Below are positions 9,273 through 27,691 of a DNA stretch of 64,000 nt, piece by piece. A model generated the notes under the pieces. The model made no database searches. It saw only the letters and a program-made list of their open reading frames with translations, and was not told the origin of the DNA. Source of the stretch: Phenylobacterium sp. (GTDB taxonomy: Bacteria > Pseudomonadota > Alphaproteobacteria > Caulobacterales > Caulobacteraceae); the NCBI GenBank assembly GCA_003136395.1, contig PLEH01000283.1:5208-69207 (forward strand), in the 5' to 3' direction. Every line of letters starts with the position of its first letter. Position 1 is the stretch's first letter. The translations under genes were made by a program, and so were the position numbers.

Positions 9273-11549
9273 TCAAGGCGCCGGGCGGACGGGCACTGGC
9301 TGAGACAGTGTCTCGCGCGGCTTGGTCCAGAGCGAAAGATAGCCCAAAGCCACCGCGATGGTCAGCGGCGCGGCGCCGGCGAAGATGAAGACCAGGTCGC
9401 CGGGCATCCGTAGCCACTCCAGGGTGCGCGCCAGGGGCGTTGCGGTATAGGCGAGGCTGCGGGCATGCCAGTAGCCGTGTTCCACCACGTCCAGCACCTG
9501 CATGACGCCGCCCGGAAACAGGCTCAGCAGCACCATCAGCGCCAGGCCCGCATTGAGGCCGACGAAGGCGACACGGATGAGCTTCTCCAGCCTGGGCCAG
9601 ACCGCCTCTGACGCGGTCTCGCGCAGGACGAACACCATCAGTCCCGCGCCCAGCATGCCGAACACGCCCATCATCGCCGCGTGGCCGTGGTTGGGCGTGA
9701 GGATGGTGCCCACCTCGTAGTAGCTGACGATGGGGGTGTTGATCAGGAAACCGAACACCCCGGCGCCGAGGAAATTCCAGAAGCCGACCGCCATCAGGAA
9801 GAAGAAGGTCCAGCGATGGCGCTGAACGATGCCGTCGTCGCCACGCGTGACCTTGACGAAATCCCACGCGTCCAGGGTGATCAGAGTCAGGGGCACGACC
9901 TCCAGGGCCGAGAACACCGCCGAGATCGCCAGGTTGAGCTCGGTCTGGCCGGTCCAGTACCAGTGATGGCCGGTGCCGATCAGGCCGCCGCCGAAGTAGA
10001 GGATCGCATCCAGATAGATGGTGCGAAGCGCGCTGATCCGCTTCACCAGGCCCATTTCATAGAAGATCACCGCCACGATCACTGTGACGAAGAACTCAAA
10101 GAACCCCTCGACCCACAGGTGGATGATCCAGAACCGCCAAGCATCGACGATCGTGTAGTTGGTCTCGGCCCCAAAGAAGAGCGCCGGCAGGTAGAACAGC
10201 GGAATGGCGAAGGCGGCGATCAGGAAGAAGTTGGCGAACCCGCGCCGCTCGGGATCCTTCCGCGCCGGCGCAACGGCCCGCCAGATCAGGAAGAACCAGA
10301 ACAGCAGGCCCACGGCCAGCAGCACCTGCCAGAACCTGCCGATCTCGAGATACTCCCAGCCCTGGTCGCCCAGCCAGAACCACGACTTGGGCAACCATCC
10401 GGCCAGGGACGCCCATTCGCCCAGCAGGCTGCCCACGGCGACGACGGCGATCGCGACGAACAGGATGTTGATGCCCAGGGTCTGGCGGCGGGGGCTGTGC
10501 CGCCCGAGCAGCTCCGCGACGAACAGGGCGCCGCCCACATAGGAGGTGGCGATCCAGAAGATGGCGGTCTGCAAGTGCCAGGCGCGCAGCAGATTGCTGG
10601 GAAAGATCACCGTCAGATCAAGCCCGTAAAACGAACCTGGCTCCGCGCGGTAGTGCGCCACGCCCGCGCCGATCAGCGTCTGCCCCAGGAACAACAGGAC
10701 GGCCACCAGCATGAACTTCAAGGTGGCGCTCTGCGACCGGCTGAGGCGCCAGGCCGGCGGGGGCGAAGGCTCGCCATGCCAGCCCAGATAGTCGAACTTG
10801 CCGAAAGCCAGCAGCACAATGGCGGTGCCGCCCAGCAGGAAGATGAAGCTGGCCGCGCTCCACAGCAGCGCCGCGCCCACCGGATGATTGCCGGCCAGCG
10901 GGTCGTAGGGAAAGTTGTTGGTGTAGGAGTGCGTCGTGCCTGGCCTCTGGGTCACCGCGCTCCAGGCCGCCCAGGTGAAGAACGCCGTCAGATCGTGCAG
11001 TTCCTTCGGGTCGCTGACCGCCCGGACCGGCAGGCCGCCGTTTCCGGCCGGGACCTCGAAATACCGCTTCCAGAGAGCGATCTCGTTCTGAAAGGTCTCC
11101 GCGCCCGCGGGCAGCAGGGTCAGGGTGTCGGTGGCGGCGTCATAGCGGTTGACCTTGAGAAGGGCGGCGACCTCGCCGTCCACCGCGCCGCGCTGCACCA
11201 CATCCAGCGCCGCGTAGTCCTTCGAAAACCGGGTGCGCGCCGTGCGGGCCGCCAGGTCGACGGCCCAATCGTGCAGCACCGTCGCGCTGAAGTCAGGCCC
11301 CAGATAGCCGCCGTGGCCCCAGATGGTGCCGTTGTCCATCAGGCCATGCTTGAGGAAGACGGCCTGACCGTGCCGGACATCGTCGCCGGTGAACAGCACC
11401 GCGCCGGCCGGATCGGCCGTGCGCCCGGCCACCGGCGGCGCGTTCCTGTAGGCCGTGAAGGTCAGCAGGATCAGCACGCCGAAACCCAGGACGAACGTCA
11501 GGGCGACCGCGCGGCCCCACCAGGGCGACAGCTGCTGCGTCTCGGACAT
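9273..11549 (-). CDS. norB: Quinol-dependent nitric oxide reductase (qNor)
   Basis: RAWHLQ, HLWVEGFFE, GTGHHWYW, SALEVVPL, HGHAAMMG; N-terminal periplasmic domain with GTIWGHGGYLGPD. Confidence 0.93.
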   Translation of the reverse strand: MSETQQLSPWWGRAVALTFVLGFGVLILLTFTAYRNAPPVAGRTADPAGAVLFTGDDVRHGQAVFLKHGLMDNGTIWGHGGYLGPDFSATVLHDWAVDLAARTARTRFSKDYAALDVVQRGAVDGEVAALLKVNRYDAATDTLTLLPAGAETFQNEIALWKRYFEVPAGNGGLPVRAVSDPKELHDLTAFFTWAAWSAVTQRPGTTHSYTNNFPYDPLAGNHPVGAALLWSAASFIFLLGGTAIVLLAFGKFDYLGWHGEPSPPPAWRLSRSQSATLKFMLVAVLLFLGQTLIGAGVAHYRAEPGSFYGLDLTVIFPSNLLRAWHLQTAIFWIATSYVGGALFVAELLGRHSPRRQTLGINILFVAIAVVAVGSLLGEWASLAGWLPKSWFWLGDQGWEYLEIGRFWQVLLAVGLLFWFFLIWRAVAPARKDPERRGFANFFLIAAFAIPLFYLPALFFGAETNYTIVDAWRFWIIHLWVEGFFEFFVTVIVAVIFYEMGLVKRISALRTIYLDAILYFGGGLIGTGHHWYWTGQTELNLAISAVFSALEVVPLTLITLDAWDFVKVTRGDDGIVQRHRWTFFFLMAVGFWNFLGAGVFGFLINTPIVSYYEVGTILTPNHGHAAMMGVFGMLGAGLMVFVLRETASEAVWPRLEKLIRVAFVGLNAGLALMVLLSLFPGGVMQVLDVVEHGYWHARSLAYTATPLARTLEWLRMPGDLVFIFAGAAPLTIAVALGYLSLWTKPRETLSQPVPVRPAP

Positions 11550-11897
11550 GCGACTGCCTTCCTGAAGGTCAATGTTCGTCAAGGCCTGACAGCCACGCCC
11601 GCATAGCTTTCCCCGTTTGAAAGCACCGCCTCATCCTTGGACCAGAAAGGGCGCGGTCAATACGAACAGGAAGCGGATGACAACTCTGTTTGCGCCCTGC
11701 ACTTGGCGCGCGAAAACGGCCGAGTGCAACCAAAAGAGGCCGTGACTTCCAGTGACGGCGCCAAAGACCGTGACGAGGCTCACAGCGAGCATGATCTGAT
11801 GGAAGCGCTCCATCCGATCGAATGGAGCGCCTGTTGGCCAGCCCTGTGCGGAAGGCGAAGAAAAGCCGTTAGACTTCAATCCTAAGCCTTCCTCCCC

Positions 11898-12284
11898 TCA
11901 CGGGCTGAAAGCGATGCGCAGGGTGGCTACGATGCCGGCGGATGCGAGGGCGAGGCAGCCCAGGCGAACCGCAATCACCGCCGCGAACTTCACGTTCGAA
12001 TGGAGGTAGTCCTCGACCACCACCTGCAGGCCCAAGGCCGTGTGGTGGAAGAGGGCGAGCAGAAGCACGATCATCGCGAGGCTGGCGAGTGGTGTCTTCA
12101 GCCACCCGATGACGGTGGCGTAGTCGCCGCCGGCGTGGGCGATGATCGCGCCCAGGAACCACAGCGTCAGCGGCACAAGGGCGACGGCGGAAACGCGTTG
12201 CGCCCACCAGTGTTTAGCGCCGACCTTGGCCGATCCGAGCCCCTGAGCCCGCGCCAGGGGCGAACGCATGTCGCTGCCGTCCAC
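11898..12284 (-). CDS. sdhD: Succinate dehydrogenase membrane anchor subunit
   Basis: GLGSAKVGAKHWWAQRVSA, HTALGLQVVVEDYLH. Confidence 0.9.
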   Translation of the reverse strand: MDGSDMRSPLARAQGLGSAKVGAKHWWAQRVSAVALVPLTLWFLGAIIAHAGGDYATVIGWLKTPLASLAMIVLLLALFHHTALGLQVVVEDYLHSNVKFAAVIAVRLGCLALASAGIVATLRIAFSP

Positions 12285-12288
12285 GGTT

Positions 12289-12708
12289 CTATCTCACCCA
12301 GAGCAAGCTGACGGCCCATGCCGCAAGGGTGAGGCTCACGCTGCCCGCGACAACCGCCCATCCAGAGATGTAGATCGACCGCAGCTCGAAGCCGTGGACG
12401 GTGTCCCAGACCAGGTGGCGGATGCCGCCGCACAGGTGCATGAAGAACGCGAAGGTGAAGCCGAACAGCACGATCCGGCCACTCCAGGAAGCGACGACGC
12501 CGTGAACCTCGCCGTAGGCTCGCGGCCCCATGGCCGCCGCGGTCAGCCAGATGACCAAGCCAACGGCTCCGAGGCTCAAGGCCACGCCGGTGATCCGGTT
12601 GGCGATCGAGAGGACCGACGTCAATTGCGGTCGATAGATCTGGATATTGGGCGAGAGCGGCCGGGGCCGCCCGGTCGTCACGTCCGAAAGAGTTGGTCTT
12701 GAATCCAC
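12289..12708 (-). CDS. sdhC: Succinate dehydrogenase cytochrome b556 subunit
   Basis: RPLSPNIQIYRPQLTSVLSIANRITG, HLCGGIRHLVWD. Confidence 0.92.
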   Translation of the reverse strand: MDSRPTLSDVTTGRPRPLSPNIQIYRPQLTSVLSIANRITGVALSLGAVGLVIWLTAAAMGPRAYGEVHGVVASWSGRIVLFGFTFAFFMHLCGGIRHLVWDTVHGFELRSIYISGWAVVAGSVSLTLAAWAVSLLWVR

Positions 12709-12711
12709 GGG

Positions 12712-13551
12712 TCAGCCTTCCCGCTCGATGACCATCTTCTTGATCTCGGCGATCGCCTTGCCGGGATTCAAGCCCTTGGGACAGGTCCGGGTGCAGTTGA
12801 GGATGGTGTGGCACCGATAGAGGCGAAACGGGTCTTCGAGGATGTCGAGGCGTTCTTCCTTGGCTTCGTCCCGGCTGTCGGCCAGCCAGCGCCAAGCCTG
12901 CAGCAGGACGGCCGGACCCAGGAAGCGATCGCCATTCCACCAGTGGCTCGGGCAGCCTGACGTGCAGCAGAAGCAGAGGATGCACTCGTAGTAGCCGTCG
13001 ACCTGGCTTCGCTCCTGCGGCGACTGGAAACGCTCCTTCTCCGGCGTCGGTGTCGTGGCGTGGAGCCAGGGTTCGATCATCTCGTACTGGGCGAAGAGAT
13101 GGGTCGTGTCCGGCACCAGGTCCTTGATGACCGGCAGGTTCGCCAGCGGATAGATCGTCGCCGGCTTGCCCATGTCGGAGATGAACCGGGTGCAGGCCAG
13201 CCAATTGGTCCCGTCCAGGGTCATGGCGCACGATCCGCAGACGCCCTCGCGACAGGAGCGGCGAAAGGCCAGCGTCGAGTCCACCTTGTTCTTGATCCAG
13301 ATGAGCGCGTCGAGGACCATGGGCCCGCAGTCGTCGAGGTCCACCTCGAAGGTATCGATACGCGGATTGCCATCGAGCTCCGGGTTGTAGCGGTAGACCT
13401 CGAACGCCTTGATCCGCGATGCGCCCGCCGGCGCCGGCCAGGTCCGGCCCTTCTCGATGCGGGACTCCGGCGTCACCTTGAAGTCTCGCGGCACGGGAAA
13501 GCGCTTGAGCAGCGTGACGCGGGGGACCTGGTCCGAGGATTCGATGATCAT
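12712..13551 (-). CDS. sdhB: Succinate dehydrogenase iron-sulfur subunit
   Basis: [14 protein letters not shown] (2Fe-2S), [31 protein letters not shown]. Confidence 0.93.
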
Positions 13552-13653: not shown

Positions 13654-13680
13654 GGAACGGCGGCTCGCGCCGGCTGTTCC
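13654..13680. promoter_or_regulatory. Overlapping divergent sigma-T/EcfG-type promoters
   Basis: Minus strand GGAAC(13680-13676)-N16-CGTT(13659-13656) toward sdhB; plus strand GGAAC(13654-58)-N16-TGTT toward 13743. Confidence 0.6.
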
Positions 13681-13742: not shown

Positions 13743-14159
13743 ATGCCTGACGAAAAGCCCAGTTTCCCAGACTCTTTGCGGTTACGCGAAAGGGCGTTGT
13801 CGAGAGGGGACAACGAAGCCGGCGCGAGCCGCCAGGGACCGCAAGACGGCTCGATCTGCAGCACGGTCGAACCCCCGGACGTACCCCCGTTGAACAACGC
13901 CGAATTGGTGCAGCTACGGGTCCGGGTGATTGCGCTGGAGAACCTGGTGATCTCTTTGCTCGCCGTGGCCGGTGATCGCCAGATCGCTCTTGCCCGCGAG
14001 ATGGCGACCTACGTGGCGCCAAGGCCAGGCTTCACCCATCATCCGCTGACGATCCATGCGGCATCCCACATGATCGATCTCGTTGAACGCGCCGGGCCGT
14101 TTCGGTCTGCAAGCGGTGGCGAGCGGTCGCCGATCCGCGAGGCGCAGACCGATGGCTAA
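13743..14159 (+). CDS. Conserved hypothetical protein
   Basis: ATG after GGGG RBS; ELVQLRVRVIALENL..PRPGFTHHPLTIHAA; stop overlaps next gene. Confidence 0.65.
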   Translation: MPDEKPSFPDSLRLRERALSRGDNEAGASRQGPQDGSICSTVEPPDVPPLNNAELVQLRVRVIALENLVISLLAVAGDRQIALAREMATYVAPRPGFTHHPLTIHAASHMIDLVERAGPFRSASGGERSPIREAQTDG

Positions 14160-14367
14160 GCGACTGAAGGTGGGGGATCGGGTCAGTTGGAATTCGGAGG
14201 CCGGCCGCGTCAGCGGCACGATCATCCGGGTCCACGATCGCGACGTCGACTACAAGGGCCATACCCATCACGCGAGCCGCGAGACGCCACAGTACGAGAT
14301 CAAGAGCAGCAAGACCGATCACATCGCCATGCATCTGGGCGCTGCGCTGACGAAGCTGGGCGACTGA
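14152..14367 (+). CDS. DUF2945 / Hva1 TUDOR-like small protein
   Basis: KVGDRVSWNSEAGRVSGTI..PQYEIKSSKTDHIAMH. Confidence 0.82.
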   Translation: MAKRLKVGDRVSWNSEAGRVSGTIIRVHDRDVDYKGHTHHASRETPQYEIKSSKTDHIAMHLGAALTKLGD

Positions 14368-14418
14368 AACGACGCGAGGCGTCGAGGCTGCAACCGAGGT
14401 CAGATGAGGACATCGAGC

Positions 14419-14443
14419 GGAACATTCCTCCGTCAGCGGCGCT
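14419..14443 (+). promoter_or_regulatory. Candidate sigma-T/EcfG promoter for ferritin-like gene
   Basis: GGAAC-N16-CGCT, one mismatch to GGAAC-N16-CGTT. Confidence 0.35.
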
Positions 14444-14518
14444 TCGCGTTGAGGGATTGTCGCCGCGATGAACTCAACCTCCGTCAAGCGCCTTCCCAAC
14501 ATTCGCCCCGGAGGGATC

Positions 14519-15112
14519 ATGCCCGTAACCACCTCAAAGACAGTCGCGGCCTCAAAGACCGCCAAGCCGTTCCTCACCGATGTGAAAACCCTCAGGGATC
14601 GGGCGCGAAAGAACATCGCCGAAGGGGCCATGACCTGGACCTACAGAGGCGACCCCAAGCAGTCGATCGAGATCCTCCAATCGGTGCTGGCGACTGAAAT
14701 CGTCTGTGTCCTGCGCTACACAATGCACGCCGTCAGCGCTGCGGGGCTCTCCAGCGACAGCGTCAAGGCGGAGTTCGCCGAGCACGCCAAGGAGGAGCAG
14801 GAGCACATGATGGCCGTGGCGGAGCGCATCACCCAACTCGGTGGCGAGCCCAACTTCGATCCCAAGGGTCTGGCGAGCCGCTCGGTCTCGCAATATTCCA
14901 CCGGACCGAGCCTGGTCGATATGATCAAGGAAAACCTGATCGCCGAACGAATCGCCGTGGACCACTACCGCGAGCTGATCCGGTTCTTCGGCGACGACGA
15001 TCCGAGCACCAAACGCATGCTGGAATGGATCCTGTCCGTGGAGGAGGAGCACGCCGACGACATGCACGACCTGCTGGTCGCGCACGAGGGGCGACCCATG
15101 TTGCCCAAATAG
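14519..15112 (+). CDS. Ferritin-like (bacterioferritin-related) di-iron protein
   Basis: ATEIVCVLRY, EEQEH, AERIAVDHY, EEEH ferroxidase pattern; GGAGG RBS. Confidence 0.82.
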   Translation: MPVTTSKTVAASKTAKPFLTDVKTLRDRARKNIAEGAMTWTYRGDPKQSIEILQSVLATEIVCVLRYTMHAVSAAGLSSDSVKAEFAEHAKEEQEHMMAVAERITQLGGEPNFDPKGLASRSVSQYSTGPSLVDMIKENLIAERIAVDHYRELIRFFGDDDPSTKRMLEWILSVEEEHADDMHDLLVAHEGRPMLPK

Positions 15113-15139
15113 GCATCAGGTATCGCTGAGAGCTGTTCC

Positions 15140-16858
15140 ATGCCCGTGACTCCCGACCACCTGGAGGCCCTCCTAAGCCGCGCCGACGACCGCCTGCTCC
15201 TCAACCGCTGGCTGCCGCCGCAAGAAGGCATCGTCCCGCGCGTGCGCATCGGCCGGCGCTGGGTCAGCGTGCTGTGGGCGCTCCCAATCGGGGCCGCATT
15301 CCTGGTCGCCTTGATCGCCATCGCCCAGAGCCTGCGTGAACTTCCCGGCGTGCAGGCGTTCATCAAGGCCTATCCGGGCATCGCCCAGGGCGCTCCATCC
15401 ATCGATTCCGGTTTCCCCTGGTGGCTGCAGGTTCAGCACTTCGCCAACATGGTCTTCATGCTGTTCATCATCCGGGCGGGCGTGCAAATCCTGGCGGACC
15501 ATCCGAGACTCTACTGGAGGCGCGATTCCACGCCAGGGACCGACTGGTTCCGCTTCCAGAAGCCGGTCCCGAAGGGGCGGGTGTGGACGTCCAGGGACGA
15601 TTCCGTGACCATTCCGGCCTGGCTGGGCATTCCCGGCGTGCGCCATTCAATCGGCCTCGCCCGCTGGTGGCATTTCTCGATCAACCTGCTGTGGGTGATC
15701 AACGGTGTGCTCTTTTACGTCCTGCTGTTTTCCACCGATCAGTGGCGGCGTCTCGTACCGCTGACGTGGGGGGTGTTTCCGGCGGCGCTATCAACCACTC
15801 TCCAGTATGCGTCTCTGAACTTCCCCGTCGACCACAGTTGGACCCGCTACAACGGCCTCCAGCAGCTCAGCTATTTCGTCACCGTCTTCATCGCCGCGCC
15901 GGTCTCGATCGTCACGGGCCTGCTGCAGAGCCCGGCGATCTCGAACAGGCTGGGCGGGTTGGGCCGGCTGCTCAACCGGCAAGCGATGCGGTCGGTCCAT
16001 TTCATCTCCTTCGCGTGGTTCGTGTTCTTCATCCTCGGGCACGGGGTGATGGTGTTCGTCACCGGCCTGCGGGAGAACACCAACCACATGTTCGCCGGCG
16101 TCGAGAACGACACCTGGGCCGGGTTCCCGCTGTTCCTGTTGGCGATGGTCATCCTGGCGGCGGCGTGGCTCTTCGCATCGCCGCTCACGCTCAGGCACGC
16201 CCGCCTGGTGCAGCGCACCGGAGGCTTCATGATCGGCTGGCTGAAGGCGTTGGCCGAACACGGAGACCCCCGGTCCCAACTCAGCGATAAGGACATCTCG
16301 CCGTTCCTTTGGCCGAACGGCACGATGCCAGACTCAGCGGAGTATGACGCTCTGCTGGCGAACGATTTCGCCGCCTACCGGCTCCGCATCAGCGGGCTGG
16401 TCGAGGCTCCGCGGGCGTTTTCGCTGGCCGAACTCAAGGCCATGGCGAAGCAGGAACAGATCACCTGCCATTTCTGCATCCAAGGCTGGTCGGGCGTGGC
16501 CAAATGGGGCGGCGTTCCGATGCGCGAAATCCTGGAACTCGTGCGGCCGACGCCGGCGGCGCGCTATGTAGTCTTCTATTCACTGGCGGATGGCGCAGAC
16601 GGAGGCCGCTATTACGACGTCCACCAGCTGTTCAACATGCGTCACGATCTCACCATCCTGGCCTACGAGATGAACGGCGCGCCGCTCAACGTGCTCCATG
16701 GGGCGCCGCTCAGACTGCGCTGCGAGAACGAGCTGGGTTTCAAGATGGTCAAGTGGATCGCGGCGATCGAATTCGTCGACGACTTTGCCCACCTGGGCGC
16801 CGGCCAAGGCGGCTACAACGAGGATCATGAGTTCTACGGCTATCGAATGCCGATCTGA
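15140..16858 (+). CDS. Molybdopterin-dependent oxidoreductase fused to cytochrome b-like membrane domain (sulfite oxidase/MsrP family)
   Basis: Transmembrane N-half with ARWWHF, YNGLQQLSYF; Moco half HFCIQGWSG, LAYEMNG, HGAPLRL, GFKMVKWI. Confidence 0.82.
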   Translation: MPVTPDHLEALLSRADDRLLLNRWLPPQEGIVPRVRIGRRWVSVLWALPIGAAFLVALIAIAQSLRELPGVQAFIKAYPGIAQGAPSIDSGFPWWLQVQHFANMVFMLFIIRAGVQILADHPRLYWRRDSTPGTDWFRFQKPVPKGRVWTSRDDSVTIPAWLGIPGVRHSIGLARWWHFSINLLWVINGVLFYVLLFSTDQWRRLVPLTWGVFPAALSTTLQYASLNFPVDHSWTRYNGLQQLSYFVTVFIAAPVSIVTGLLQSPAISNRLGGLGRLLNRQAMRSVHFISFAWFVFFILGHGVMVFVTGLRENTNHMFAGVENDTWAGFPLFLLAMVILAAAWLFASPLTLRHARLVQRTGGFMIGWLKALAEHGDPRSQLSDKDISPFLWPNGTMPDSAEYDALLANDFAAYRLRISGLVEAPRAFSLAELKAMAKQEQITCHFCIQGWSGVAKWGGVPMREILELVRPTPAARYVVFYSLADGADGGRYYDVHQLFNMRHDLTILAYEMNGAPLNVLHGAPLRLRCENELGFKMVKWIAAIEFVDDFAHLGAGQGGYNEDHEFYGYRMPI

Positions 16859-17099
16859 GCGGAGGCGGTCCCGATGCGATTCAATAGCGCCCGCCGATTT
16901 GAGCCTGGCCGGTGTGTCGGGGAACTTGCCGTCTGGTTTGAAAGACTGTCGCGCAGGCTGCGTCGAACACGTCGCGCAACACCTCGGAAGACGGCCACGT
17001 CACTCTGACGAGCAGGGATATTGCTGAGCCGGGTCACCCCGTCAGATTGACTCTCGGGCGTCTGCTGTCCTGGAACCAAATCGCATAGCAGCCGTTGCG

Positions 17100-20030: not shown

Positions 20031-20885
20031 ATGTCAAGTGTGGCTATACAAAACGACAGTAAGTTAAACCAGCTCCAAACCCTCCTTCCGGAGGGGATGG
20101 TGGTGGACGCTGCCTGGATGGAGCGTCACGGCTACTCGCGCCAGCTGCGCGGCCAGTACGTCTCCGCCGGCTGGCTGGAGCAGCCGGCCGGCCGCGTCTA
20201 CTGGCGTCCGCGTGGCGTCCTGGGCTGGGAAGCCGTCGTCGTCTCCCTGCAGACCCTCCTGGATCTGCCGCTGGTGGTGGGGGGCCGCACCGCCCTGCAG
20301 GTCCAGGGGGCGAGCCACTACCTCGCCCAGGAGATGCGCGAGGTTCACCTCTACGGTCCCGTGGCCCTTCCGACCTGGCTCGCCAAGCTCCCGCTCGGCG
20401 TGACCTTCCGACACCACAACAGCGACCGGCTGTTCAGGCCGGGGGCCTCTCCAAGCAGCCCCCTCAGCGCCGACTTCGAGGTCCACCGCCAAGCGGGCTG
20501 GAGCGCTGAGTCCGTCAAGGCCGTCCGCCAGGTTACCTGGGGCAGCTGGGACCTGCCGATGACGCTCTCCACACCGGAGCGGGCGTTCCTGGAGCTGTTG
20601 GACGAGCTGCCCGACCGGGACACGTTCCACGACGCCGACAAGCTGATGGAGGGCCTGTCCAACCTCAGCCCCCGACGCCTCACCCATCTGCTGACCGAGT
20701 GCCGCAGCGTGAAGGTGAAGCGGCTGTTCTTCTTTTTCGCCGACCGGCACCAGCACGCCTGGGCGAAGCACCTGCGCGCCGCCGACTTCGACCTGGGCGC
20801 TGGAAAGCGCGTGCTGGTCCGGGGCGGCAAGCTCGACCGGCGCTACCAGATCACCGTCCCAGAGGATCTCGATGGCCTATCGTGA
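20031..20885 (+). CDS. Type IV TA antitoxin, AbiEi family
   Basis: KLNQLQTLLPEGMVVDAAWM, GGRTALQVQGASHYL, STPERAFLELL, VKVKRLF, GKLDRRYQITVP. Confidence 0.87.
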   Translation: MSSVAIQNDSKLNQLQTLLPEGMVVDAAWMERHGYSRQLRGQYVSAGWLEQPAGRVYWRPRGVLGWEAVVVSLQTLLDLPLVVGGRTALQVQGASHYLAQEMREVHLYGPVALPTWLAKLPLGVTFRHHNSDRLFRPGASPSSPLSADFEVHRQAGWSAESVKAVRQVTWGSWDLPMTLSTPERAFLELLDELPDRDTFHDADKLMEGLSNLSPRRLTHLLTECRSVKVKRLFFFFADRHQHAWAKHLRAADFDLGAGKRVLVRGGKLDRRYQITVPEDLDGLS

Positions 20886-21807
20886 CCTCTATCAGCGGCA
20901 GGTCGCGCTGCTGATCCGCGTGCTGCCCTATGTGGCCGAAGAGACGGTCTTCGCCCTGAAGGGCGGCACCGCGATCAACCTCTTCGTCCGCGACCTCCCG
21001 CGGCTGTCCGTCGACATCGACCTGACCTACCTGCCGGTGGAACCACGCGACGTATCCCTGGCGGCCATCGAGGCGGCGCTGCTGCGGCTGGCTGACCGGA
21101 TCCGGGCCGCTATCGCCGGCGTGCAGGTCAGCCTCCACCGCCTGCAGCCGGACAACAGCGTCGACAAGCTGCTGATCCAGCTCGGCGTGACCCGCGTGAC
21201 CATCGAGGTGACTCCAGTCCTCCGAGGCTGTGTCTTCGACCCGGTGATGATGACGGTGACCGAACGGGTCGAGGCTGCGTTCGGATTTGCGGAAGCGCAG
21301 GTGGTGTCTTTCGCGGACCTCTATGCGGGCAAGATCGTGGCCGCCCTCGACCGGCAACACCCGCGCGATCTCTTCGACGTCCGGGACCTGCTCGCCCACG
21401 AGGGCCTGACGGGCGACCTGCGCGCAGCCTTCCTGATCTACCTGGTGAGCCACACGCGCCCGATGTCGGAGGTCCTGGCCCCGCACCCGAAAGACATCGC
21501 CCAGGCCTACGAGCGCAGCTTCGAAGGGATGACCGAGACGCCCGTCGCCCTCGACGACCTCATCGCCGCGCGGGCGGCGATCGTGGACGCGGCCGTCGGC
21601 GGGATGCCGGACGCCCATCGCCGGCTCCTGCTGTCCTTCGAGACGGGGGCGCCAGACTGGTCGCTGATCAACTTGCCGCAGGCCGCAGACCTGCCGGCCA
21701 TCGCCTGGCGGCTGCAGAACCTTGCGACCCTGACGCCGAAGCGCCGCGCGGAGCAGGTCGCGCGCCTGCAGGCGGTCCTCTATCCCGCCGGTTCCAGTTC
21801 CGGCTGA
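20872..21807 (+). CDS. Type IV TA toxin, AbiEii nucleotidyltransferase
   Basis: FALKGGTAINLF, PRLSVDIDL, GKIVAALDRQHPRDLFD; overlaps antitoxin. Confidence 0.9.
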   Translation: MAYRDLYQRQVALLIRVLPYVAEETVFALKGGTAINLFVRDLPRLSVDIDLTYLPVEPRDVSLAAIEAALLRLADRIRAAIAGVQVSLHRLQPDNSVDKLLIQLGVTRVTIEVTPVLRGCVFDPVMMTVTERVEAAFGFAEAQVVSFADLYAGKIVAALDRQHPRDLFDVRDLLAHEGLTGDLRAAFLIYLVSHTRPMSEVLAPHPKDIAQAYERSFEGMTETPVALDDLIAARAAIVDAAVGGMPDAHRRLLLSFETGAPDWSLINLPQAADLPAIAWRLQNLATLTPKRRAEQVARLQAVLYPAGSSSG

Positions 21808-21901
21808 GCCGGGACGTCCGCCTCGGCGCTGTCGTCCCCCGCGTGGCGCTTCACCGCGCAAATGATCTGAAACGTGAAGTCGGTCAGGCTTTCGTCTCAA
21901 A

Positions 21902-21979
21902 AACGGCCCCCGCTACTACTCGGCATTCGTTGTGGACCATGACGGTCACAGGCTGGAGGTGGTTTGTGAGCAGGCTTGA
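21902..21979 (+). pseudogene. C-terminal remnant of VOC/glyoxalase protein
   Basis: Own translation NGPRYYSAFVVDHDGHRLEVVCEQA*; typical YYxAFVxDPDGxxxE ending. Confidence 0.6.
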
Positions 21980-22184
21980 AGTAGCGCGAGACGAAGCTCC
22001 GCCACCCCATCAACCTTCAGCTTGCGGATGAACGAGACGCGCACCTCCGGCGCGTGGTTCGCCCGCAATAGAGGGGCCGTCGCGAATTTGGTTCAAGTCC
22101 TGCCGGGATTGTGCATGAAAATTAAATGAGAAAACTTGCATAATCAGCCAGAATTTCCTAACTTTGCGGGGAAGGAATTTGACG

Positions 22185-22859
22185 ATGACGGCGCTCAACG
22201 AGCTCAAGAAGCATCTGCGGCCCGGCCAGGTGTATCGGCGCAAGGACCTGGCGCGCTGGTCGACGGCCGTGGATCGGCATCTGCGGCAGTTGGTGGAGGA
22301 GGGACGGCTCGAGAAGGTGTCGGGCGGCCTCTATATGACGCCGCGCCAGACGCGGTTCGGTCCGGCGGCGGCGGAGCAGGAAGACCTGGTGGCCGCGTTC
22401 CTGGGTGACGACCGGTTTCTGATGGTCTCGCCCAACGCCTACAACGGGCTGGGGGTCGGGACGACCCAGCTTTACAACGTACCGGTGGTCTACAATCGCA
22501 AACGTCACGGGCGGTTCGAATTGGACGGCCGGCCCTATGATTTCCGGCAGCGGGCTTCGTTTCCCCGGCGGCTCAGTCGAGAATTCCTGCTGGTCGACCT
22601 GCTGCACAATGCGGACCGCCTGGCCGAAGAGCCCGGTCTCGTCCGCCGCCGGGCCTTGGAACAGGCGGGTACGCTGGATCCCAAGCGGCTGGCGAAGGCA
22701 GTGGACGACTTCGACTCCGCGCGGGTCCGCAGACTGTTGTCGCCGATCCTCGCCGGCGAGGATCGCCGCGGCGGCGGCATGAGCGTGATGCATGACCGAG
22801 GCGACTTTCGCGATCTGACCGCGGCGACGGCACGCGCAGCAGGGATCGACCCTGGCTAG
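22185..22859 (+). CDS. AbiEi-like antitoxin (winged helix) running in-frame into the start of a broken toxin
   Basis: LRPGQVYRR..VDRHLRQLV..KVSGGLY, SPNAYNGLGVGTTQLYN; last 26 aa from ATG 22779 (MSVMHDRGDFRDL..GIDPG*) resemble AbiEii N-terminus. Confidence 0.7.
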   Translation: MTALNELKKHLRPGQVYRRKDLARWSTAVDRHLRQLVEEGRLEKVSGGLYMTPRQTRFGPAAAEQEDLVAAFLGDDRFLMVSPNAYNGLGVGTTQLYNVPVVYNRKRHGRFELDGRPYDFRQRASFPRRLSREFLLVDLLHNADRLAEEPGLVRRRALEQAGTLDPKRLAKAVDDFDSARVRRLLSPILAGEDRRGGGMSVMHDRGDFRDLTAATARAAGIDPG

Positions 22860-22946
22860 CGAAAGACACGAGAAGGCATGGACGAATCGGGAATGGCACT
22901 GGCCGCGGAGCGGCGGAGGCTCAGTTTCGACATCAATCGCTGGTGG

Positions 22947-22966
22947 TGCTTCCCATAAGCTTCCCA
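22947..22966 (+). repeat. Tandem TGCTTCCCA-type repeats (11-bp period), left of att
   Basis: tgcttccca-taa-gcttccca; same motif at 23303-23321. Confidence 0.6.
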
Positions 22967-23111
22967 AATCGTCTTTGGCCCACTCCAGTTTCTCGACAAG
23001 AATGGCCATAACTAGAGGAAATATCATGAGAAGTGGCTTGGTTTAGGGTGGCTAGATCGAAGAAGGGACCTCAGCCGTCGCTAGGAGCGGGGTTTCACGA
23101 GGGGAAACTGG

Positions 23112-23147
23112 TGGTTCCCCAAGTGCTTGATTTCACTTGGGGAACCA
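23112..23147. terminator. 14-bp perfect hairpin abutting the tRNA-fragment 3' end
   Basis: TGGTTCCCCAAGTG-N8-CACTTGGGGAACCA. Confidence 0.6.
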
Positions 23148-23193
23148 TGGTGCCACGACAGGGATTCGAACCCTAGACCTCAGCCTTATCAAG
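23148..23193 (-). mobile_element. att site: 3' half of a tRNA
   Basis: Minus strand C-TTGATAA-GGCTG-AGGTC-TAGGG-TTCGAAT-CCCTG-TCGTGGC-A-CCA; T-arm and CCA intact, no matching 5' half; 180 bp from an integrase. Confidence 0.82.
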
Positions 23194-23302
23194 CCGGGTT
23201 GGAGCCTTTCTGATTTCACGATATTGTACGAAAAATCACTATAAATACATTGTGTTACCCACTTCATTTTTGCGATATTGTTCGCTAGAGTTTTCTCCAA
23301 TC

Positions 23303-23321
23303 TGCTTCCCATGTGCTTCCT
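23303..23321 (+). repeat. Tandem TGCTTCCCA-type repeats (11-bp period), right of att
   Basis: tgcttccca-tg-tgcttcct. Confidence 0.6.
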
Positions 23322-23372
23322 AACCTCGGTGAAATGCAGAGCAAGAAAACGCGGCCCACAGGATATTCGGCC

Positions 23373-24869
23373 ATGCTGGAGAAACGCGCGAAGTTGACCC
23401 GCAGGATCGTGGAGGGCGCCGAGCTGGGCGCCGGCGAACGGTTCATCTGGGACAGCGAGGTTTCGGGATTTGGGGTACGAATCCGCCCCAGCGGCCGCCG
23501 CGGCTATGTCTTGCAGTACCGCTTCGCCGGCCGGACACGTCGCTTTCAGATTGGAACCCACGGGTCCCCCTGGACGGTGGAGACCGCGCGAGACCGCGCC
23601 CGCATTCTGATGGGTCAGATCGCCGGCGGCGAGGACCCGCAAGATGCTAAGAATGGCTCCCGCAAGGAGCTCAATGTCGCTCAACTCTGCGACCTCTATC
23701 TGGCCGAAGGCCTGGCTACCTGCAAAGAGACCTCCGTGGCCTCGGCCCGGTCCGATATCGAAAACCACATCAAGCCCTTCCTCGGGACCAAGCGCGCCAG
23801 CCTGGTCAATCGCCAGGACGTGGACCAGCTCCTGGCCGCCGTCGCGGCCGGCAAGACCCGGCGCACAGTGAAGACCGGCAAGAAGCGCGGGCTCTCACGG
23901 GTGAAGGGCGGCAAGGGCGCCGCCAACTCCGCGGTGGTGACGCTGTCGGCGGCCATGGGCTTCGCGGTGGCCCGCGGCATCCGCCATGACAACCCGGCCT
24001 TCCGGGTGCGGCGGTTCCCGGAGAAGAAGCTCGAGCGCTTCCTGTCGCCCGCCGAGATCGCGCGATTGGGCGAGGCTCTCGCGGCGGCCGAGGCGATCGG
24101 GGTCGAGCTGCCGGCCGCCATCGCGGCCATCCGGCTCCTGATCCTCACCGGCTGCCGCAAGAACGAAATCCTCACTCTGCAGCGGGCGCACGTCGATGCG
24201 CACCACCGCTGCCTGCGGTTGCCCGACAGCAAGACCGGGGCGAAGATCGTCCATATCGGCCTACCGGCGCTCAAGGTGATCGAGGCCATCCCGGAGGTTC
24301 CTGGCAACCCCTACCTCCTGGTGGGCGCCTGGGACGTCGGCCACTTCGTGAACCTGCAGCGGCCGTGGGAGCGGATCCGCGCGGCGGCGGGCCTGGGGGA
24401 CGTGCGGCTGCACGATCTGCGCCACGCGTTTGCGAGCCTCGGCGCCGCGACCGGCGACAGCCTGCTGGTGATTGGGGCGCTGCTCGGCCACCGGAGCGCC
24501 AAGACCACCCACCGTTACGCGCACCTGGCCGAGCACCCGGTCAAGGATGCCGCTGACCGCATTTCAGCCGAGATGTCCCGGCTCCTGGGCGAAAAGGGGG
24601 AGGGCGAGGAGGTCGTGCACGACCCGTTTACGGCGACATCAACGCCAATCGACGATCCGCAAATGCAATCTCTGCTCGGAAGGGTGAGCCACACCCGGTG
24701 GCTCGATACCCAGGCCGCGGCGAACTACGTCGGGCTGTCGATCCCGACGCTTCACACGTACCGGTGGGCGGGCACGGGTCCGCCGAGCCGGAAGATCGGG
24801 CGCCGGATCGTCTATGCGCAGCCGGATTTGGACTCGTGGGTGGCTGGACGAGCTGAGGCCTCCACCTAG
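23373..24869 (+). CDS. int: Tyrosine integrase with N-terminal arm-binding domain and C-terminal excisionase-like HTH
   Basis: IWDSEVSGFGVRI arm domain; catalytic TGCRKNE, DSKTG, LHDLRH, LLGH, RYAH; tail WLDTQAAANYVGLSIPTLHTYRWAGTGPPSRKIGRRIVY. Confidence 0.92.
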   Translation: MLEKRAKLTRRIVEGAELGAGERFIWDSEVSGFGVRIRPSGRRGYVLQYRFAGRTRRFQIGTHGSPWTVETARDRARILMGQIAGGEDPQDAKNGSRKELNVAQLCDLYLAEGLATCKETSVASARSDIENHIKPFLGTKRASLVNRQDVDQLLAAVAAGKTRRTVKTGKKRGLSRVKGGKGAANSAVVTLSAAMGFAVARGIRHDNPAFRVRRFPEKKLERFLSPAEIARLGEALAAAEAIGVELPAAIAAIRLLILTGCRKNEILTLQRAHVDAHHRCLRLPDSKTGAKIVHIGLPALKVIEAIPEVPGNPYLLVGAWDVGHFVNLQRPWERIRAAAGLGDVRLHDLRHAFASLGAATGDSLLVIGALLGHRSAKTTHRYAHLAEHPVKDAADRISAEMSRLLGEKGEGEEVVHDPFTATSTPIDDPQMQSLLGRVSHTRWLDTQAAANYVGLSIPTLHTYRWAGTGPPSRKIGRRIVYAQPDLDSWVAGRAEAST

Positions 24870-27286: not shown

Positions 27287-27691
27287 GGGCTTCCTCCTCG
27301 GCAATTGACGCGACAGGATGCGGCGGCGGTCGGTGCGCGCTTTGATCGGCGTCAAAATGCGCATGACAACTCACTGCCCGAGCCACATGGGTCTGCCAGC
27401 GCTCCCTATTGAACGGCTGCGGAGTGTCCCCGATCAGCCGCTGCGCCTCTTCGCGGGTCGTCGTGGTGCGAAGGCAGATGGGCGAGCTATTGCCGCGGTT
27501 GAACGGTACGAGCAGCCCATCCTGCTTGATCCCGAGCCGCGCGGCGGTCCCCCGCCGATCTTGAGCGCACGCGGCTTTGCTTTCGCCTCCGACATCTGTG
27601 GCCAGGAACCCCCGCCAACGCGGCACGTTAATGGAAATTGGGTGAGGCGAGATTTCGGCGAGTGGCCGGCCTTTATTCGAAAGTACAAATC

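Follow-up and report, generated by a model that had tools for sequence, protein, structure and literature searches.

The canonical type C succinate:quinone oxidoreductase (complex II), known from Alphaproteobacteria, mitochondria and E. coli (PDB 1NEK, 1ZOY, 8GS8) and typified by the gene order sdhCDAB, couples a flavoprotein, SdhA, to an iron-sulfur subunit, SdhB, and two membrane anchors, SdhC and SdhD. Here we describe three consecutive genes, referred to as sdhB', sdhC' and sdhD' and together as the module, that lie in a 64,000-nucleotide stretch of a Phenylobacterium sp. assembly (GCA_003136395.1, contig PLEH01000283.1, positions 5,208 to 69,207 of the forward strand); this whole stretch is called the window. 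The module has in common with the type C enzyme its subunit families, one haem b, three Fe-S clusters and the quinone-site residues, but it differs in the order B-C-D without A, in a 22-residue N-terminal extension of SdhB', in substitutions in the cluster loops, in an SdhB clade set apart at about 61% identity, and in being borne on plasmids or genomic islands.

Several systems in which complex II is duplicated or divided offer points of comparison. Ascaris has stage-specific complex II subunits, and mycobacteria carry Sdh1 and Sdh2, complete second SDH operons that provide two complex II enzymes for different physiological states. Such second operons of bacteria include their own flavoprotein gene and represent different structural types, whereas the module has no flavoprotein gene. 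The mitochondrial genomes of jakobids and red algae are said, in work attributed to Burger et al. from 1996, to encode sdh2, sdh3 and sdh4 and never sdh1. This is the same split, with B, C and D on one replicon and A elsewhere, although there it reflects organelle-to-nucleus transfer and concerns a single enzyme, whereas the module is a second, mobile copy. In yeast, paralogues of SDHC and SDHD differ in the respiratory conditions under which they are expressed (PMC10238741), and in Fusarium asiaticum a second SDHC gene is tied to fungicide sensitivity (PMC13144763). Eukaryotic isoforms of this kind likewise place alternative subunits in one enzyme according to condition; however, a single, chromosomal and vertically inherited subunit is swapped, while the module brings three non-flavoprotein subunits together in a transferable bacterial operon. 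In the literature that we searched, we found no earlier description of a mobile bacterial B-C-D operon or any other sdhB-C-D unit without sdhA, of DUF6522, one of its recurrent neighbours, or of a link between such a unit and NsrR or the general stress response. The family has been invisible because annotation labels its genes merely as succinate dehydrogenase subunits.

By every sequence criterion the trio belongs to the SdhB, SdhC and SdhD families, and co-encoding with SdhA is the only feature that is missing. SdhB' scores 348.6 bits against NF004616 (cut-off 228) and 260.5 against TIGR00384 (cut-off 88), SdhC' 115.1 bits against TIGR02970 (cut-off 52.3) and SdhD' 79.4 bits against TIGR02968 (cut-off 41.8). 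The Pfam domains are Fer2_3 and Fer4_17 in SdhB' and Sdh_cyt in both anchors, and the top matches among solved structures are mitochondrial SDHB (E = 4e-104) and mitochondrial SDHC. All 11 of the 11 cluster cysteines are present in SdhB' (C100/105/108/120, C190/193/196/257 and C200/247/253) and do not vary in 35 clade members. The quinone-site residues are retained in all three subunits (P201, W205, H248 and I250 in SdhB'; S34, I35 and R38 in SdhC'; D92 and Y93 in SdhD'), as are the haem ligands H91 of SdhC' and H81 of SdhD', and these residues too are invariant across the clade. The genes follow one another on the minus strand with only 3 and 4 bp between them (Table 1). Alternative starts exist for both anchors: the gene caller favours a 130-residue SdhC' from 12681, and for sdhD' the ATG at 12269 (123 residues) is more likely the start than that of the longer form.

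An earlier note on this DNA had read the three genes as intact, their order as B-C-D and the flanks as free of sdhA or any remnant of it, and each of these points holds. Curated thresholds are passed with cysteines, haem ligands and quinone residues all in place, and the order in the window is indeed B-C-D, where the typical alphaproteobacterial operons that we retrieved run sdhC-D-A-B. A tblastn search with S. meliloti SdhA returned no homologue or remnant in any part of the 64-kb window (best E = 2.8). The gaps flanking the module are 190 bp and 316 bp, and so there is no room beside it for a remnant of sdhA.

The same separation from sdhA is seen well beyond this window. For a survey of related loci, which carry L numbers below, reference proteins were mapped onto 85 non-redundant loci, 51 of which had enough flanking sequence to judge. 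The order is B-C-D wherever sdhC' (81 of 85 loci) and sdhD' (77 of 85) are present, the remainder being cut by contig ends; among the well-flanked loci sdhC' is found in 51 and sdhD' in 50. In just one of these 51 loci does sdhA lie within 10 kb of the module. That locus (L019, 5582-11651), from an uncultured alphaproteobacterium, contains a full sdhCDAB operon, then Hva1_TUDOR and DUF488, then sdhB'C'D'; the canonical operon is 1 kb upstream of the module and its SdhB is of the housekeeping type, such that one A stands beside two sets of B, C and D. Unbiased clustering of all open reading frames (ORFs) within about 8 kb revealed no recurrent SdhA-type flavoprotein near the module, and none of six plasmids that carry the module is among the plasmids encoding a canonical SdhA. 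Contigs of the source metagenome aligned to a housekeeping sdhCDAB reference gave many fragments from many organisms, which are not readable per genome.

Protein searches place SdhB' in a well-defined clade. The best 120 clusters were all near full length, 78-88% identical and nearly all of 279 residues. A scan of 185,579 species-representative genomes returned 398 relatives, in addition to thousands of metagenomic proteins, and the best 80 of these 398 are 77-95% identical and align from residue 1. Carriers are found in Caulobacterales (among them a Phenylobacterium metagenome-assembled genome (MAG), 95%), Hyphomicrobiales, Sphingomonadales and Rhodospirillales, and in the gammaproteobacterial Steroidobacterales and Lysobacterales. 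The window protein shares 61-63% identity with its housekeeping SdhB counterparts in Sinorhizobium, Methylobacterium and the L019 organism, which are 75-81% identical to one another. A neighbour-joining tree resolves SdhB' as a monophyletic clade with a long stem; the branches within this clade do not follow taxonomy, and its sister is a more distant B-C-D unit from a plasmid of Methylosinus trichosporium OB3b.

The module is a horizontally mobile unit. It is carried on six plasmids, between insertion sequence (IS) copies and in low-GC islands, and it occurs in both Alpha- and Gammaproteobacteria. On the M. trichosporium plasmid pOB3b2 (L090, 3318-12321) the B-C-D unit and DUF488 lie between two inverted IS66 copies in an arrangement like that of a composite transposon, with an SdhB that is 62.5% identical to the window SdhB' and is without the N-terminal extension. 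In Methylobacterium sp. P31 a 5-kb segment that includes the module is present twice (L053, L055); the copies are 98.7% identical and are separated by 1 Mb on one 5.95-Mb contig. The window and its closest relative (L009) are syntenic only over the molybdoenzyme, Hva1, orf138 and sdhB'C'D', and the match breaks off at the stop codon of sdhD'. The region from 9 to 30 kb of the window has a GC content of 0.63-0.66 against about 0.70 in the flanks, and inside it, at 20031-24869, are genes for the type IV toxin-antitoxin pair AbiEi/AbiEii and for a tyrosine integrase that has an arm-binding domain; no tRNA genes were found in the 64-kb window. The view of the trio as a module of its own is borne out across the 51 loci, the six plasmids and the IS-flanked or duplicated copies: it is self-contained, conserved and transferable, and its own flavoprotein never travels along.

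Two further plasmid arrangements were noted. On plasmid 3 of Pseudorhizobium flavum (L001, 12390-13182) sdhB' is unannotated and was matched as two pieces in different frames; this copy, which adjoins nirK and a pseudoazurin gene, is probably a pseudogene. On a conjugative plasmid of Bradyrhizobium sp. Ash2021 (L093), the incomplete PLSDB gene table lists sdhD and sdhA next to a hydrogenase-4 gene and shows no sdhB following sdhA.

Apart from that probable pseudogene, the module is under purifying selection. Pairwise ratios of nonsynonymous to synonymous substitution (dN/dS) are 0.06-0.17 for sdhB' and 0.16-0.31 for sdhC' and sdhD', with a few aberrant values that arose because shadow ORFs were wrongly picked. 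Elevated dN/dS had been proposed as a sign of decay, and values of 0.06-0.31 indicate that the module is not decaying. At the protein level, of the 101 positions that do not vary among five diverse housekeeping SdhB, 86 are each retained by at least 90% of the clade, and in the N-terminal [2Fe-2S] domain, which faces SdhA in solved complexes, 31 of 37 invariant housekeeping positions are kept. Clade-fixed replacements lie mostly in the cluster-binding loops (L146Y, A153F, T157S, S158G and M210L in E. coli numbering), and a further one, F/Y162H in the same numbering, adjoins the Trp-Trp pair of the quinone site. The substitutions around the [4Fe-4S] and [3Fe-4S] clusters and next to the quinone site suggest a change in the robustness or redox tuning of the portion that SdhA does not supply, which is the one most exposed to nitric oxide, oxidants or quinone-site inhibitors. 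The 22-residue N-terminal extension is also conserved in the clade, with the consensus mIi.SSdqvpr.tllKRFP.P, and 96% of the clade has Asp or Glu at the position equivalent to the human interface residue Asp48.

What, then, might the module do? An intact, conserved and mobile trio that lacks sdhA and keeps most of the universally conserved residues of SdhB, together with an SdhA that is ubiquitous and conserved, is explained most simply if the trio docks onto the resident SdhA. A module that must function on arrival in new hosts must use something that every host already has. According to this reading, sdhB'C'D' would encode an alternative, mobile lower half of complex II, with three Fe-S clusters, a quinone site and a haem b anchor. 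Having no dicarboxylate-oxidising subunit of its own, it would join the housekeeping SdhA to form a second succinate:ubiquinone oxidoreductase isoform, in which electrons would pass from succinate through the flavin adenine dinucleotide (FAD) of SdhA to the [2Fe-2S], [4Fe-4S] and [3Fe-4S] clusters of SdhB' and on to ubiquinone at the site formed by B', C' and D'. The suggestion that the module borrows the housekeeping SdhA had been made in the earlier note; it is the most economical option and fits both the L019 arrangement and the 86 retained residues, while the partnership itself is one that we infer. We give about half of our confidence to the full proposal of a conditionally expressed, swappable half of complex II working with the resident SdhA; the SdhA partnership, the conditional expression and a functional difference from the housekeeping half are each inferred.

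Conditional expression in the window would proceed from a candidate promoter upstream of sdhB' (Table 1), GGAAC-N16-CGTT, which matches the consensus for the general-stress sigma factor (EcfG/SigT) of Alphaproteobacteria. L010 has the motif at an equal distance, L009 has a variant of it, and it also occurs in L056 and L090 (a Sphingomicrobium MAG and Methylosinus), where that of L090 sits 113 nt upstream of the module. No sigma-70-like promoter was found in the gap upstream of sdhB'. Across the whole window there are 5 matches to GGAAC-N16-CGTT where 1.8 are expected. As separate observations, one of these lies at 17072-17096, 253 nt upstream of the pyrroloquinoline quinone (PQQ) dehydrogenase gene, and one at 27605-27629, just upstream of a Pyr_redox_2 ORF that adjoins a rhodanese gene. 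A de novo k-mer search of the 85 loci yielded no general shared upstream motif, the strict EcfG motif is essentially absent upstream of the Hva1, DUF488 and Mo-enzyme genes, and no operator of NsrR/NnrR type was identified at module loci. Perfect FNR-type boxes occur at two Steroidobacteraceae loci only.

In other lineages the module lies beside regulators of nitric oxide (NO), anaerobiosis or Fe-S damage. Stress-type neighbours (CBS, Hva1, DUF488, orf138, Mo-enzyme) are present at 45 of the 51 well-flanked loci, and 16 of the 51 have at least one gene for NO or Fe-S damage or repair, from a set comprising qNor, NnrS, NirK with pseudoazurin, NsrR-like Rrf2, Ric, DUF2249, DUF59 and an AhpD-like protein. 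In Paracoccus an NsrR-like Rrf2 regulator gene is divergent from ric, and both adjoin the module. Regulation thus seems to be lineage-specific and repeatedly of a stress, anaerobiosis or NO kind.

A number of observations weigh against the proposal of a stress-induced half that uses the resident SdhA. The window SdhB' itself has Asn at the position of the human interface Asp48. The AlphaFold model of SdhB' built with 35 clade members reached a predicted local distance difference test (pLDDT) score of 36, because the alignment was too shallow, and is unfit for mapping the substitutions or the extension. A functional difference from the housekeeping enzyme is not evident from the proteins, in which the contacts of the quinone site are canonical throughout. 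The EcfG-type motif is scarce, lying upstream of 4 of 87 modules, which is above the roughly 0.4 expected; since it is this rare and the regulators differ by lineage, "stress-conditional" describes a pattern and not a demonstrated regulon. Finally, no transcripts of the window locus were found in metatranscriptomes of the same study, and one doubtful RNA run gave fragments that are 90-95% alike and cover sdhB' and sdhC' only.

If SdhA is shared, the module would represent subunit-level isoform switching of a core respiratory enzyme in bacteria, brought about by horizontal transfer, and complex II would be divided along a natural seam that separates catalysis from the electron wire, quinone site and anchor. 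This raises the questions of what constrains complex II when nitrosative or oxidative stress or quinone-site inhibitors act on it, of how far the SdhA-SdhB interface tolerates foreign partners, and of whether respiratory enzymes can be "patched" by acquired partial operons. For metagenome-assembled genomes, counts of sdhB would overstate the number of complete enzymes.

A more specific version of the proposal, which we regard as doubtful, is that the module is a horizontally spreading "replacement target", a hardened form of just those components of complex II that NO, reactive oxygen or natural and agricultural quinone-site inhibitors attack, namely the Fe-S clusters, the haem and the quinone pocket built by B, C and D; it would take charge of SdhA once the housekeeping half had been poisoned. 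The replacements A153F, T157S, S158G, M210L and F/Y162H would then be the hardening, the N-terminal arm would help SdhB' to compete for SdhA, and soil bacteria would acquire the module much as they acquire drug-insensitive target enzymes.

Unlike both of these proposals, the module could pair with another flavoprotein, either a dedicated, divergent SdhA' with its gene at another place in the genome or another member of the family such as NadB (L-aspartate oxidase), and would then be part of a split-gene second enzyme. In favour of this reading, the strongly conserved, clade-specific N-terminal extension could serve to dock one particular partner, and split sdh genes do occur, as in Ruegeria TM1040, where sdhB is separate from sdhCDA. 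However, no such flavoprotein gene travels with the module in the 51 informative loci or on the six plasmids, a module that passes between Alpha- and Gammaproteobacteria would be of no use to a new host if it depended on a partner that it does not bring, and L019 places it beside an ordinary sdhCDAB operon. We consider a separate flavoprotein partner, the main rival, rather unlikely.

It is more improbable still that the trio works with no SdhA-type flavoprotein at all, as a membrane-bound Fe-S wire linked to quinone or quinol whose exposed [2Fe-2S] end trades electrons with some other partner. Candidates would be DUF6522, whose gene overlaps the start of sdhB' at 14 of 85 loci, the CBS-pair protein encoded straight after sdhD' at 39 of 85, a fusion of a Rieske protein with an FAD/nicotinamide adenine dinucleotide (NAD) reductase near the module at 7 of 85, and the adjacent molybdoenzyme, whose gene in L005 is immediately upstream on the same strand. 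The DUF6522 and CBS genes are absent from the window, however, and so are not obligatory, and the Rieske reductase has no constant position or strand. The retention of 31 of 37 N-terminal residues would also be unexpected had the contact with SdhA long been lost. Docking to the nearby molybdoenzyme or PQQ enzyme, which the earlier note had raised, is not supported. The molybdoenzyme is already anchored by a six-helix cytochrome b561 of its own and belongs to a separate cassette that is also found without the sdh module. The PQQ dehydrogenase is encoded at 2 of 85 loci, has a single N-terminal hydrophobic segment and is of a periplasmic family, whereas SdhB faces the cytoplasm. Given the anchor and separate cassette of the one and the rarity and periplasmic family of the other, neither is a credible docking partner. 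That the module is a redundant or decaying remnant, left when a duplicated or transferred operon lost sdhA, as the split sdhB' of P. flavum and the several copies amid IS elements might suggest, deserves hardly any credence, as the arrangement is kept at 85 loci in two proteobacterial classes with invariant ligands and the low dN/dS given above.

Table 1. The module and its neighbouring features in the window (positions are those of the window)
Feature	Position	Strand	Description
qNor, quinol-dependent nitric oxide reductase	9273..11582	-	NorB_cytochrome_c-like + COX1; downstream of sdhD', 316-bp gap
Palindrome, 13+13 nt, GCGCTCCATCCGA/TCGAATGGAGCGC	11805..11830	.	sdhD'-qNor gap, 68 nt past the sdhD' stop
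sdhD'	11898..12284	-	Small hydrophobic anchor subunit; 128 aa
sdhC'	12289..12708	-	Cytochrome b556 anchor subunit; 139 aa from GTG at 12708
sdhB'	12712..13551	-	Iron-sulfur subunit paralogue, 279 aa; clade-specific 22-residue N-terminal extension
GGAAC-N16-CGTT motif (EcfG/SigT type)	13656..13680	-	105 nt upstream of the sdhB' ATG
orf138	13743..14159	+	Conserved hypothetical, divergent from sdhB'; first gene of the co-travelling cassette
Hva1_TUDOR (DUF2945) small protein	14152..14367	+	Pfam PF11160
Ferritin-like/Dps-like protein	14468..15112	+	Pfam Ferritin; local insertion, not in closest relative L009
Cytochrome b561-molybdopterin oxidoreductase fusion	15140..16858	+	PF01292 + PF00174; six predicted helices (hydropathy)

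The neighbours of the module in the window (Table 1) recur to different degrees elsewhere. Among the 85 loci, Hva1_TUDOR and orf138 are each found at 27, DUF488 at 26, the cytochrome b561-molybdoenzyme at 20 and qNor at 4. DUF6522 and CBS were rejected as parts of the window copy, where both are missing. No terminator is predicted between sdhD' and qNor, and the palindrome in this gap is possibly an operator or an RNA hairpin. An ORF in the same gap (11631-11879) has no family match and was taken as non-coding.

The product of orf138 belongs to a family of 1919 proteins with the invariant motif PRPGFTHHPLTxHAAxHM and has no Pfam or NCBIfam match. Its model is a three-helix bundle with pLDDT above 90 over residues 50-125, and no PDB match was obtained at E < 2. 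Together with Hva1_TUDOR and the cytochrome b561-molybdoenzyme, and elsewhere with DUF488 and a TehB-like protein, orf138 forms a cassette of its own (13743-16858 in the window; L096-L098 and L099-L100). In Caulobacter sp. DWR2-3-1b2 this cassette stands beside an alternative oxidase gene, on an element that encodes an integrase, ParB and HipA and has no sdh module; a link of the alternative oxidase to the module was rejected, as it adjoins the orf138 cassette in one Caulobacter lineage only and never the sdh module. At other loci the cassette lies beside NDH-2, PQQ dehydrogenase or the Rieske-FAD reductase, and nearly all of its companions feed or drain the quinone pool.

Near the start of the window, at 139-2643, an 834-residue ORF with transaldolase and phosphoglucose isomerase domains heads a row of pentose-phosphate genes (6PGD, G6PD, a HAD phosphatase and a DeoC-type aldolase).

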